Part shown: positions 33,583 to 38,136 of the stretch, piece by piece | Numbering within the stretch: position 1 is the stretch's first letter | Layout of the letters: every line of letters begins with the position of its first letter | Origin: a virus | Taxonomy: Duplodnaviria > Caudoviricetes | IMG/VR virus record: IMGVR_UViG_3300028805_000043 | Length of the DNA: 64,000 bases | Reading direction: 5' to 3' (one strand) | Made by a program: the position numbers and the translations under genes | Notes under the pieces: generated by a model | The model's input: the letters and a program-made list of their open reading frames with translations, nothing else | Database searches by the model: none | What the model was told of the DNA's origin: nothing

Positions 33583-34557
33583 TTAGAATAATGATAATTG
33601 AAATGCTGTACCTGCATTAACTTTAGGAATATCCATTACTTCCAAGAATCTATTAATAGGATCAATAACATTCTTCTCCCATTGTGTTATCTTTGACATT
33701 TGTGGAGCCCATGTTGGTAATTCACCTGCAGGATATCCAAAATATCCATTTTTATCTCCTATCATTATGTTATAATATTTAATTTTTCCAGAATATTGTA
33801 ATTTATTATCTTCTCCATTCTTATGAGCTAAATAATTATATCTTGCAATAGCCTGTACAGAAACTGGGCATTGTTTTCCTAAAACTAAATCTTTTTTATC
33901 TTCTATAACATATTTCTTATAATCACCAACCCCTATAGATTGTGATATATCTTCAATTGGTGATTTATAGAATTGTTTTCTATATTCTTGTATTTTATTA
34001 TTAAATGAAAGTATATATTCTTCCTTATGTTCTTCATCATAATCAAACATAAGACTATTCATTAAATCAGTTAATATTGTTCTACAAAGTTTTGGTGTTG
34101 TAGATTTAACTAATTCAATACCTGTGCCAGATACCTTTGGTTTTTCATAATACTTTCCTTTAACGAATGCATATCCTTTAAGATATTTCTTTTTCTTTAC
34201 GCAAATCTGTGCATAAGATACAGTTTCCAATTCAAATTCATGTACGTTCTTACCATGTCTAGGATCATATATATCTCTACACCATTGATTATTCTGTCCA
34301 TCCAAAAATTCTTTATTAAATCTAAGTATCCAATCAACTTTATTTTTTCTACCTATATATTTATCTCTATATTCTTTTGTCATACATCTGAATAAAGATC
34401 CATAAGTAGTATATACAGAATTGTGTACTAATATATCATTTGCTATAAAAGTATGAGAATCATCTTCAACTTCTATATCATAAACTTCTTCATTATCAAA
34501 ATCTTCTAATTGCTCAATACTTTCTATTTCTTCTATTATATAATCATTATTATTCAT
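33583..34557 (-). CDS. DNA polymerase B C-terminal half fused behind the split-intein C-fragment
   Basis: 46-aa IntC ending VYDIEV..SHTFIANDILVHN|S, then PolB motifs FELE, KKKY, GIELVKSTTP. Confidence 0.92.
   Translation of the reverse strand: MNNNDYIIEEIESIEQLEDFDNEEVYDIEVEDDSHTFIANDILVHNSVYTTYGSLFRCMTKEYRDKYIGRKNKVDWILRFNKEFLDGQNNQWCRDIYDPRHGKNVHEFELETVSYAQICVKKKKYLKGYAFVKGKYYEKPKVSGTGIELVKSTTPKLCRTILTDLMNSLMFDYDEEHKEEYILSFNNKIQEYRKQFYKSPIEDISQSIGVGDYKKYVIEDKKDLVLGKQCPVSVQAIARYNYLAHKNGEDNKLQYSGKIKYYNIMIGDKNGYFGYPAGELPTWAPQMSKITQWEKNVIDPINRFLEVMDIPKVNAGTAFQLSLF
34420..34557 (-). mobile_element. Split intein C-fragment (46 aa, blocks F and G)
   Basis: VYDIEV...HTFIAND (block F); VHN plus Ser(+1) (block G). 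Confidence 0.92.
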
Positions 34558-35816
34558 AATTCAATCTTTAATGTATTTTTTATAAAATCTTCAACATTAA
34601 TTCCATTTCTATAATCACTTTCCCAAACAATAATAGTATCAATGTTTCTTATTTCTTTTAATAGTTTATATCTATTATTATCATTTTCCCAAATTTGTTT
34701 TGCTGTTGTTACTTTATTATGTGGGTTAGGATAATCATCTGCTTTAAATATTCTGGGATCACCATGATAATATGTCCCATTAAATTCAATACATAAATTC
34801 AATTCTAATATAAAATAGTCTAAACGAATATATGAATCAATTAAATTAATTCCATATTCACCATTTTTATTTGCATAATATGTAGTATATTTATTTCCTA
34901 AATATTTGTCTAATTCATTAAAAAACTTTTGAGAAATTTTTGAATAAAAATTATGATGTTTATTTAACATTATTTCATATTGTTTCAACCCTTCATCTTT
35001 TCCATATTTATTTATAAAATTTTTTAATGTTAAAGCTTTAGATTGATTAATTTGATTAGTTTTTTCTTCACCATATTTTTTAATCATATATTCTTTTGAT
35101 TTTGTTAATTTTTGTTTATTAACATAATCTTCAAAATATTGTTTTCCTAATTCTTCTCCATATTTATTTTGTAAATTTTCTAATGTAACTCCTCTACTTT
35201 TATTAAATTGTTTAAAATCTTCTTCAGACCAATTATATTTTTTCTTTTTATATTTAAATGTATTTGTTTCAGCTTGTTTATTACAATAATCATTCCATCT
35301 TTTTACACCATCTTTTTCTCCCCATTTTCTTATCATGGTTTCTTTAGTGATACCAGTGATCATTGAACATATTTTTTTATAATCATCATAAGAATATCCA
35401 TAAGAATACGCTCCATATTTATTTGCTTTCATAAAATAATATTTTGGAGCTTTTGGTGGATTATCTTTAAAATGATTTAATAAACAATTTTCACAACAAC
35501 TTAAATAATATTTTTCTCCATTTATTTCTCTATAATAAATTTGTGGAACAGCTAACATTAAATAATTATTTTTCTTATTATATTGAATTAAAAAATTAGA
35601 ATTAACAATTATATTTCCACAAAATCTACAAACTGCAAATAAGTCTTTTGGTAGTTTTAAAGCTATTTGATATTTTTCTTCTTTATTATTTGATTTATTA
35701 AATAAATTAACTAATTCAATAATTTCATTTATATTATCATATTCATTTAAATATAATTTAGGAAAACTATATTCTTTTAATTCAACGCTTGTATGATAAT
35801 ATTTATTAATTTTCAT
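34554..35816 (-). mobile_element. Free-standing Vsr/EDxHD-like homing endonuclease between the intein halves
   Basis: C-terminal LDYFILELNLCIEFNGTYYHGDP...IIVWESD; K(W/Y)GxxxG helical repeats; CxxC and CCxxC motifs; overlaps both pol genes. Confidence 0.8.
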
Positions 35817-38136
35817 TCTTAACTGATAATATTTTATCTGTATTTTTATTAATATCTTTGGCTTTAATTGTTAATTGCTTACCATTTCTAAATACAACAC
35901 AACTATGATCACCAGTAACAATAATTTCTTTACCTGATTTTGTTTTTATTTTAAATTGTGTTTTAGAAACTTTATGTTTCATAATATATTTAATTGGTAC
36001 AAAATGTAATCCTTTTTCTTTAGTATAATTAAGTACCTCAATATCTTTTAATCCTGGTGTTATTTCTTTAGAAGAATCTTTTGAATCATAATTAAATACT
36101 CCAGTAAACTTATAATTATAATTAAATAAATCTTTAATTGTTACCTTTAAAAGTTGTTGTTGGTATTTAATTAATAATAAACTATTTTCTCTAATACTAT
36201 CTGTATCTGAATATACACTAATAGGTTGTTTGCGATACCAATCATGTTTAGATTCATCTAATTTAAAATCAAATTTTTCCCAAAGATCTTTACGTTCCCA
36301 AAGTGTTTCATGGAAGAAATATTCAAGATTATTCCACATAGTCTTTGTAAGATTACGACATTCACCAGTAATATCACCAGCTAAAGCCATGTTATAGAAA
36401 TAGAAGAATCTATTTGCACAACAACCATAAAGACCATTACCTAATAATTTCATAGCTAGCTCAAGTAATGAATATTCATGTCGTAAATCTTCAACATCTA
36501 TTCTGAATTTCTTTAATTCATCAATAGACATGTTATATATATTCTTACCTGGGAACTTTTCATTCATAAGATTAATTACATCATCATGGAACTTCATTGG
36601 TTCTCCTTCCTTGCCTGCAATTAATCTATCAATCTCTACAAGCATTTCAGAATCTAACTTCTGACCTGTATATTTATATTTATCTCTATTAGCCTTAAGT
36701 TTTGCTTGCACGATACGGAATGTATAGTCTTTATCATTCTTATATACATTACCCATAACAGTAACAAAGTAATTAGGATCTTTTCTAAATTCATCTAATT
36801 CTTGTTCTGACCATTTAGCTATTGTGTATCTACCAAAACTATCTGGGCCAACTTTCTTTTCATATAAATTCTCAAATGAAAGATTACAAGTACGAACCTG
36901 TGAAGGATATAGGGATGCAAAATCATCACAAACAGTAAATTCATAACGACCTGGTACACATCCACAGAATGCACCTTCATAAGGTACTTTTACTCTTTCA
37001 ATAGCATCATAATCCCAAACAATTTTCTTTCCTTGAGAATAGAATTCTTCAAATACATTTGCAGTACCTAAAGCAACCTGTCCAAATGCTCCTTGTAATG
37101 ATACCAATGTTACTGATGACACTGCACAAGGAGATTCAATAGCCTTTAATTTATAATGAATTAATTCACCGATACAACTATCAATTGCGTTATAGAAATA
37201 ATACCACTCAGGATCCCTTTCATATAAATCTTGCAATGATCCCTTATACTTAATCTTATGAGCTTTAACTGCAGCGTTACCAACCCAATCCAAAGAATAT
37301 GATTCGTATGGCCTTAATATATAATCATATTGTTTTACAATCTCCATGTAGTCCAATAATATTGAGTGTGCAGGACCAAAGAAATATTTCTTTTCACCAG
37401 AAATATCTTCCCATGAATATCTTTTAATTTCACCAGTTGGAGATGACTTACGAATAATATTCATTGCCACATTTCTTCCAAATAACTTATTAAGACGTGT
37501 CGTCATATACAGCATATCGAATCCATATGAATTCCATCCTGCTAAACAACCAATTTTTGGTATTATAATCGTAAAGAAATGCTCAAGCATTGCTTCCTCA
37601 GTTGGAAAATATTGATATAATACTTTAGGTTTCCAACCATTATTTTGTATTAAAGTTGAAGCAAATTCATTTTCAGAAAGCCAATCTAAATAACGTTTTT
37701 TAAATAATTCTACTTGTTCCTGCGACAAATTATGTAGTCCATATACAATACAGCTTAAATCTGGACCAACTAAAGATATAGCTGTAACCTTTTGATCTGC
37801 TTTCTCTGGATCAGGAAATTCAGAACTTATTTCTGTCTCAATATCAAAAAAATATAATTTTGGAAAATATTGTGCATGTAATTGTTGATTAATATCTTTT
37901 GGTAATTCATACATAAATTCCAAAAGTTCAAATTCATTAGGTGTATAATCTAATGTATCTTTAAAAATTTTATTACAACGTTTTCCATCCCATGTTTCAT
38001 ATTCACCATCATTTGCATATTCATAAGATTTAATATGATGAATATATTTTTGAAAAAATTGTCTATTTCCTAATTTATCAATGTATGAAATAACTAATTT
38101 TTGTTCCTTCTTGTTCCATGTTCTATCAAGTATCAT
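35806..38136 (-). CDS. DNA polymerase B (gp43-like) N-terminal half with split-intein N-fragment
   Basis: ExoI FFDIETE, ExoII GWNSYGFD, ExoIII YNAID, region II DFASLYPS, region III KLLGNGLYG, region I YSDTD. Confidence 0.95.
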   Translation of the reverse strand: MILDRTWNKKEQKLVISYIDKLGNRQFFQKYIHHIKSYEYANDGEYETWDGKRCNKIFKDTLDYTPNEFELLEFMYELPKDINQQLHAQYFPKLYFFDIETEISSEFPDPEKADQKVTAISLVGPDLSCIVYGLHNLSQEQVELFKKRYLDWLSENEFASTLIQNNGWKPKVLYQYFPTEEAMLEHFFTIIIPKIGCLAGWNSYGFDMLYMTTRLNKLFGRNVAMNIIRKSSPTGEIKRYSWEDISGEKKYFFGPAHSILLDYMEIVKQYDYILRPYESYSLDWVGNAAVKAHKIKYKGSLQDLYERDPEWYYFYNAIDSCIGELIHYKLKAIESPCAVSSVTLVSLQGAFGQVALGTANVFEEFYSQGKKIVWDYDAIERVKVPYEGAFCGCVPGRYEFTVCDDFASLYPSQVRTCNLSFENLYEKKVGPDSFGRYTIAKWSEQELDEFRKDPNYFVTVMGNVYKNDKDYTFRIVQAKLKANRDKYKYTGQKLDSEMLVEIDRLIAGKEGEPMKFHDDVINLMNEKFPGKNIYNMSIDELKKFRIDVEDLRHEYSLLELAMKLLGNGLYGCCANRFFYFYNMALAGDITGECRNLTKTMWNNLEYFFHETLWERKDLWEKFDFKLDESKHDWYRKQPISVYSDTDSIRENSLLLIKYQQQLLKVTIKDLFNYNYKFTGVFNYDSKDSSKEITPGLKDIEVLNYTKEKGLHFVPIKYIMKHKVSKTQFKIKTKSGKEIIVTGDHSCVVFRNGKQLTIKAKDINKNTDKILSVKNEN
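35809..36198 (-). mobile_element. Split intein N-fragment (130 aa, Ser1)
   Basis: Starts SIRENS right after YSDTD; block B IKTKSGKEIIVTGDHS; ends DKILSVKNEN-stop. Confidence 0.9.

Follow-up and report, generated by a model that had tools for sequence, protein, structure and literature searches.

A probable Vsr-like homing endonuclease lodged in a split intein that interrupts the family-B DNA polymerase gene of a phage

What is an open reading frame (ORF) of 420 codons doing in the middle of a DNA polymerase gene? The question is raised by a virus of the Caudoviricetes (Duplodnaviria; IMG/VR record IMGVR_UViG_3300028805_000043), of which a stretch of 64,000 nucleotides, referred to here as the window, was analyzed. 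On its minus strand the gene of a family-B DNA polymerase (polB) is broken in two by a split intein, and the ORF lies between the N-terminal and C-terminal intein halves, IntN and IntC. Our answer, which we consider likely, is that the ORF encodes an intact, free-standing Vsr-like homing endonuclease of the EDxHD family, that it occupies the place where endonucleases are canonically found in a Ser1/Ser+1 split intein, and that its homing and its coupling to the polymerase halves would follow the steps proposed below. The arrangement as such is already known from the work of Dassa et al. (2009), from Taylor (2011) and from phages in GenBank; the window is a clear new example of it and not a new kind of system.

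The layout can be read directly from the DNA. The endonuclease ORF (34554..35816, minus strand) starts with ATG and stays open over its full length without a frameshift. The ORF upstream of it (35806-38136, 776 residues) joins the N-half of the polymerase to IntN, and the ORF downstream (33583-34557, 324 residues) joins IntC to the polymerase C-extein, which places the halves of a polB intein on both sides of the endonuclease, as in the split-intein fractured genes, within one host gene. The endonuclease ATG (35816-35814) is embedded in AAG AAT GAA AAT TAA at the end of the upstream ORF, and its TGA shares the letters ATGA with the start codon of the downstream ORF at 34557-34554. A first-pass annotation of this DNA had described a 420-residue ORF that overlaps the IntN stop by 11 nt and the IntC start by ATGA, and it was right on both counts; the Cys, K(W/Y)G and nuclease-core motifs it had named are likewise all present in the ORF. 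With 405 near-length homologues and 2,616 representative clusters at E <= 0.001, the ORF is also far beyond what chance would produce. The features of the locus are collected in Table 1.

Table 1. Parts of the interrupted polB locus, in the order in which they are transcribed.
Feature	Coordinates	Strand	Remarks
polB N-extein, 646 aa, ends ...YSDTD	36199..38136	-	Pfam DNA_pol_B_exo1 and DNA_pol_B; contiguous with the C-extein in L093-L097, L103, L104
IntN, 130 aa, Ser1, block B T95-x-D-H98, conserved His75	35809..36198	-	stop codon 35806-35808
11-nt overlap of endonuclease start and IntN stop	35806..35816	-	read from sequence
Endonuclease residues 1-130: N-terminal helices and beta-rich four-Cys zinc ribbon (C63, C66, C108, C111)	35427..35816	-	
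Middle part of the endonuclease, residues 131-290: array of five K(W/Y)G helix-Gly-helix units, each about 26 aa long; presumed to bind DNA	34947..35426	-	
C-terminal part of the endonuclease, residues 291-420: nuclease domain of the Vsr fold (D333, E344, N346, H351, D379)	34557..34946	-	stop codon 34554-34556
ATGA overlap of endonuclease stop and IntC start	34554..34557	-	read from sequence
IntC, 46 aa, ends ...VHN	34420..34557	-	Pfam Intein_splicing, residues 3-46
polB C-extein, 278 aa and stop, starts SVYTTYG (Ser+1)	33583..34419	-	PHROG 262 DNA polymerase; directly after the N-extein in empty alleles

The protein consists of three modules, namely N-terminal helices with a four-Cys zinc ribbon, five KYG-type helix-Gly-helix units, and a nuclease domain. 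In the predicted structure this C-terminal domain has the Vsr fold, and Vsr is its top structural match. Its core reads D333 ... I-E344-F-N346-G-T-Y-Y-H351 ... V-W398-E399. When the catalytic residues are mapped onto Vsr by spacing, D333/E344/N346/H351/D379 stand 11, 2, 5 and 28 residues apart, exactly as do D51/F62/H64/H69/D97 of Vsr. These five positions define the Vsr-like homing endonucleases, which have a family-specific Glu at the position of Phe62 and Asn at that of His64 (PMC2677866, PMC3239194), and the window protein has the expected residues at these positions: Asp, Asn (or His), His and Asp, with Glu at the Phe62 position. In an alignment of 34 homologues reaching down to about 41% identity, D333, E344, G347, H351, P354, R382 and W398 are invariant, and N346 and D379 are conserved in at least 90% of the sequences. 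Predicted structure and spacing agree with a Vsr-like core; searches by sequence did not reach Vsr or I-Bth0305I.

This last point belongs to a group of observations that speak against the assignment. Neither phmmer with the single sequence nor a profile search of the PDB reaches Vsr or I-Bth0305I (3R3P), and Pfam assigns the endonuclease no family. The first helix of the nuclease domain (293-306) shows invariant S292, S295, Q296 and F299 across the 34 homologues, and no invariant Glu that would match E170 of I-Bth0305I or E25 of Vsr. With no such match in sequence, the assignment rests on the predicted fold and the spacing of the motifs. More broadly, searches of Pfam, NCBIfam and PDB sequences gave no family above threshold for the whole protein or for its three parts. 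A short match of the core was obtained only to the Hef-like protein of Pseudomonas phage PA5oct (E 2e-4), and the homologue from Aeromonas phage Aes123 scores 20.5 bits against DUF559, for which the cut-off is 20.6.

A comparison with the EDxHD prototype I-Bth0305I (PDB 3R3P; PMC3239194) brings out several differences. The gene of I-Bth0305I belongs to a group I intron within recA, whereas the window enzyme is encoded inside a split intein, and the two have no detectable sequence similarity. The distance from the His to the last Asp is 9 residues in I-Bth0305I and 28 in the window enzyme, as in Vsr. As described, the N-terminal region of I-Bth0305I contains two NUMOD2-like helix-turn-helix motifs, in place of which the window enzyme has its zinc ribbon and five KYG units.

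The intein that surrounds the endonuclease is of a type already characterized experimentally, that of the Aes123 PolB1 intein. Pfam Intein_splicing covers the upstream ORF's residues 662-765, and the junctions (marked here by a slash) read ...YSDTD/SIRENS... upstream, with Ser1 and TGDH as block B, and ...ILVHN/SVYTTYG downstream. The intein interrupts polB motif C (YxDTD/S) and is a cysteine-less Ser1/Ser+1 intein. Identity to Aes123 is 52% for IntN over residues 69-124 and 53% for IntC, and the hallmarks of the Aes123 PolB1 type are all found: Ser1, Ser or Thr at +1, the terminal His-Asn, TxxH in block B, the conserved His, and insertion at DTD/S. Among 33 IntN sequences, S1, H75, T95, D97 and H98 do not vary. 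His75, which lies in YIMKHKV and is invariant in these homologues, is probably the histidine of the NX motif reported to be specific to Ser1 inteins (PMC10189870). Homologous inteins occur in two insertion registers, DTD/S and YGD/TDS. The second is used by L059, L060, L066, L076 and others, which form a clade of split inteins related to the window's, also in their endonucleases, and sit two codons upstream of the window's site; since the junctions there read YGD/S...HN/TDS, the +1 residue in this clade is Thr.

Is the whole arrangement one element? The IntN-endonuclease-IntC segment is a discrete insert of low GC content, absent precisely in close relatives and recurring at the same polB site in distant phages. 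A search with the N-extein found 14 loci of close relatives, one with the full cassette, seven with precise empty sites, and six in which polB ends near residue 511. In the seven empty alleles (L093-L097, L103 and L104; polB 73-78% identical), residue 646 of the N-extein is followed in frame by residue 1 of the C-extein, a sporadic presence typical of homing genes, with close relatives that lack exactly the three inserted parts. The GC fraction is 0.20 for IntN, 0.20 for the endonuclease and 0.22 for IntC, as against 0.30 and 0.27 for the N- and C-exteins, and at third codon positions (GC3) the contrast is sharper still, with 0.06-0.07 in the inserted parts and 0.18 (N) and 0.14 (C) in the exteins. 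Compared with distant phages, the intein (about 38-48%) and the endonuclease (33-54%) are more similar to those of the window than are the exteins (17-31%), whereas in close relatives the order is reversed and the exteins are the more similar; this pattern requires horizontal spread. The empty sites, the shared low GC content and the pattern of spread support the view that the three parts entered as one cassette. In the six shortened loci (L098-L102 and L105; e.g., L100:4417-6048), polB terminates at a point close to residue 511 of the window protein, and the genes behind it are unrelated.

The first-pass annotation had gone further and called IntN-endonuclease-IntC one homing unit. The precise empty sites and the common low GC content uphold this claim, but the unit is not indivisible. 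Allowing for intein forms in a scan with a 12-sequence IntN alignment, we found 35 loci with an endonuclease of the window type, three split inteins in which another insert, of 1.1-1.5 kb, takes its place, 15 non-redundant contiguous mini-inteins (one ORF each) homologous to the window intein, and 10 split inteins without endonuclease, the halves of which are separated by 43-450 nt of non-coding spacer. The mini-inteins and the bare split inteins count against a fixed unit, as do three further cases: L013 has an endonuclease and no intein at all; L008 and L009 are mosaic, with IntC 94% and the endonuclease only 47% identical; and in PA5oct the endonuclease that accompanies a related IntN is another one, of Hef-like type. 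As for the three split inteins with other inserts (L115, L122 and L172), their inserts do not match the window endonuclease family and may encode endonucleases of other types at this position.

From these observations the strongest competing explanation can be built, one of nested elements, in which the natural target of the endonuclease is an endonuclease-less intein, mini or bare split, and not empty polB; the endonuclease would invade inteins, as in the gene-breaking model of Dassa et al., and the intein would spread separately or not at all. It is the less likely reading, though one with a real chance of being right. In its favor are the mini-inteins and endonuclease-less split inteins just described, the location of the endonuclease at the canonical insertion point of the intein, the mosaic identities of L008/L009 and the different endonuclease of PA5oct. 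The link between endonuclease and intein divergence is also modest (partial Mantel r 0.25 with extein divergence controlled, in a kind of test that shared descent inflates). Yet an intein-only allele was seen in none of the 14 loci of the closest relatives, six of which show only the first ~511 residues of polB, where the insertion site is not visible, and IntN, endonuclease and IntC are of one composition. A further case is L013:1381-5498 (IMGVR_UViG_3300028832_000094), in which an intein-less polB is split into ORFs of 657 and 303 residues by an endonuclease of 376 residues, which shares 50% identity with that of the window. This polB is interrupted 13 codons upstream of DTDS, which is in the C-half, and the polymerase would have to assemble without splicing. 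An endonuclease so close to the same polB site, with no intein around it, points to polB DNA as the sequence recognized. The enzyme may recognize empty polB DNA, an endonuclease-less intein or both; this locus, and the fact that no intein-only alleles were seen among the close relatives, favor polB DNA.

The second part of the question concerns the overlaps, from which the first-pass annotation had argued that the endonuclease must be translated whenever the essential C-half is made and that the halves are kept stoichiometric. The argument finds partial support. At the 3′ end the overlap is a trait of the whole family: of 54 non-redundant loci, 46 have the endonuclease's stop codon within the IntC frame, with overlaps of 4-31 nt, the ATGA of the window being the shortest form; for comparison, overlaps of 6-69 bp have been reported in 15 fractured loci (PMC2677866). 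The 5′ end is less general. Only 12 of the 54 loci, from a few lineages that include that of the window, have an overlap there, an 11-14 nt overlap being kept in the near relatives L106, L107, L108, L006 and L008. Neither junction shows special RNA structure when compared with shuffled sequences (z +0.36 and +0.42). The hairpin control of other fractured genes is taken to be absent here, since the junctions have no such structure; in place of a spacer there is the 11-nt overlap, and promoter-like matches were below the shuffled expectation. No terminator-like site was found within the block of three ORFs. It is a reasonable reading that the three overlapping ORFs form a translationally coupled unit, in which synthesis of the C-half would depend on ribosomes that finish the endonuclease, and which might also bear on the stoichiometry of the halves.

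Coupling of this kind opens the way to another explanation, that the endonuclease is a decaying or inactive passenger whose frame stays open only because the polymerase C-half depends on its translation. The overlaps at both ends would provide the dependence, and the split inteins with mere 43-450 nt spacers show that the gene has been lost in some lineages. We regard this as quite unlikely: among the 34 homologues all putative catalytic residues and the four Cys vary little or not at all, the frame is full length, and the presence and absence of the insert among close relatives fit an active mobile element.

There remains the kinship with Vsr itself. E. coli Vsr (PDB 1CW0/1VSR) is a single-domain mismatch nickase of 156 residues with a zinc site in the nuclease domain, whereas the window protein has 420 residues in three modules, with an N-terminal extension of 290 residues, and differs in that Glu replaces Phe62 of Vsr and Asn replaces His64. 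The single-domain, zinc-bearing form of Vsr is not what is seen here, for the NGTYYH stretch, the equivalent of xGCFWH in Vsr, is without Cys. Cys66 is among the zinc ligands of Vsr; as Thr348 stands at this position in the window enzyme, the zinc site appears to be absent. It is highly improbable, then, that the protein is a Vsr-type mismatch-repair nickase or some other domesticated, polymerase-associated nuclease, in spite of the top structural match and identical catalytic spacing, given that its gene lies inside an intein and not beside a cytosine methyltransferase gene, that close relatives with intact polB do without it, and that it has a presumed DNA-binding region of 290 residues and apparently no Vsr zinc site.

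What, then, are the other two modules for? We infer that the zinc ribbon and the KYG array supply DNA recognition. The CRFC motif corresponds to C63/C66 and CCENC to C107, C108 and C111, and C63, C66, C108 and C111 are invariant in the 34-homologue alignment. The K(W/Y)G motifs are KWGEKDG (164-170), KYGEELG (218-224), KYGEEKT (247-253) and KYGKDEG (270-276), with a degenerate KYNWSEE, and a hidden Markov model of the unit finds five copies (156-181, 185-208, 210-235, 239-260 and 262-287) with the consensus ..L..MI.KYGEE.G...W..Y..KQ, about 26 residues in a helix-Gly-helix form. The N-terminal 290 residues are modeled with a confidence equal to that of the nuclease part, the AlphaFold2 confidence measure (pLDDT) exceeding 90 for residues 1-130. 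The only zinc-finger matches of the protein, to TRASH (E 8e-5, below the cut-off; residues 1-130) and to zf-BED, are weak, Pfam gives no NUMOD family for the endonuclease at E <= 10, and the one BFVD match named "Nuclease associated modular domain 3" superposes with a root-mean-square deviation of 15.9.

The first-pass annotation had supposed that this repeat-based DNA-binding region may be a new architecture. It is true that ribbon and KYG units have no counterpart among solved structures, but the claim was overstated, since the repeats are already present in the Aes123 protein and in PHROG 22677 (annotated as "unknown function"), and a related form is found in the Pfam DUF7487 proteins. The latter, such as the product of a 353-residue gene beside polB in L108, have their modules in the same order as the window protein: N-terminal helices, a CxxC...CxxC ribbon, repeated ..KYG.. 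units and a D...IE.xG..FH nuclease. The N-terminal module aligns with the N-terminus of a DUF7487 protein with an hhalign probability of 82%. The window protein is not itself a DUF7487 member, as residues 128-292 score 12.5 bits against a cut-off of 27 and the genome record has no match, and the relationship suggested by these comparisons would be one of remote homology only. DUF7487 units are shorter than those of the window, and the genes are free-standing next to polB, outside inteins. Two of them, L108:1073-2134 (+) and L010:6077-6988 (-), lie directly at polB and combine the zinc ribbon with several KYG units and a core of Vsr-like type. These are probably paralogs, homing endonucleases with genes of their own whose targets would lie around polB. 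On the metagenomic phage contig of L010, a RecA-like gene with an intein match (L010:9059-9158) is a second intein-bearing replication/repair gene.

A bolder proposal combines the last two topics. The zinc ribbon with an array of 3-6 KYG units might be a new nuclease-associated modular domain for reading DNA, each 26-residue unit touching a short stretch of it; and in the lineage of the window, hairpin and late-promoter control might have been exchanged for an obligatory translational relay from polB-N/IntN through the endonuclease to IntC/polB-C, which would make endonuclease translation indispensable for the production of polymerase. We consider this proposal unlikely as it stands.

With polB as the favored target, the sequence of the empty site becomes of interest. 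The joined flanks of the window contain ATACAGA-T-TCTGTAT, centered on the last base of the N-extein. When the reconstructed window site and six natural empty alleles were tested for dyads, this center was the best in five of the seven, with 6-8 of 10 positions matching, although much of the symmetry is due to the way D-T-D-S-V is encoded. I-Bth0305I forms a stable dimer, and the DNA it cuts is a pseudo-palindrome close by the site of its insertion (PMC3239194), which makes a dimeric mode plausible for the window enzyme as well. In the mechanism we propose, the zinc ribbon and KYG array would recognize the DNA, and the enzyme, probably as a dimer like I-Bth0305I, would cleave endonuclease-free polB alleles at or near the pseudo-palindromic DTD/S site during co-infection. 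Recombinational repair would then copy the whole cassette into the cut allele, and trans-splicing of the intein halves would restore a functional polymerase from an allele that is no longer a target. The three ORFs would be read as one coupled unit, so that a loss of endonuclease translation would mean less of the essential C-half.

The same arrangement can be seen in a number of other phages. Split-intein halves of polB enclose a homologous endonuclease in Aeromonas phages Aes123 and Aes508 (with annotation to that effect), in Campylobacter phage CP21 and in Tenacibaculum phage PTm1. A search with the endonuclease alignment gave 80 metagenomic viral loci, and in nearly all of them the gene is preceded by IntN and followed by IntC. 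The closest known system is that of Aes123 (JN377899; relatives Aes508 and AS-gz), whose "putative VSR endonuclease" between gp43B1 and gp43B2 shares with the window the DTD/S site, the Ser1/Ser+1 split intein, the order IntN-endonuclease-IntC, and ORF overlaps on both sides, of 16 and 17 nt. The Aes123 protein is the top match of the window endonuclease among the BFVD predicted viral structures (E 1.3e-16) and is 34% identical to it over residues 155-402, a span that includes the KYG units and the nuclease core. However, it has only 353 residues and lacks the zinc-ribbon N-terminal domain. In Aes123, an Aeromonas phage of the T4-like kind, polB is divided into three pieces, while the N-half in the window is a single ORF. 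A three-piece polB like the gp43A/B1/B2 of Aes123 also occurs in L008, where a separate 267-residue piece (L008:3211-4014) corresponds to residues 516-646 plus IntN. The fractured genes of Dassa et al. (2009; PMC2677866) are alike in that a replication gene of phage type contains split-intein halves with a free-standing Vsr-like endonuclease between them, and the 3′ end of the endonuclease overlaps the downstream half in both. They differ at the other end, where in the Dassa loci the endonuclease is preceded by a 5′ untranslated spacer that contains a hairpin and an element resembling a late promoter, and in the window the start overlaps the IntN stop instead.

The findings leave the current understanding of how such elements work unchanged. 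Their value lies in what the locus and its relatives offer together, a natural series of the stages that have been proposed for gene fracturing: the polB without insert, the mini-intein in one piece, the split intein that holds the endonuclease, the split intein that has lost it, and the polB broken by the endonuclease without any intein. With 2,616 representative clusters the KYG subfamily is large, and its presumed DNA-binding region is modeled with high confidence. Finally, because the flanking inteins are related to the Aes123 PolB1 intein used in protein chemistry, their natural variants are potentially useful, and these Ser1/Ser+1 forms could serve as new cysteine-less split inteins.

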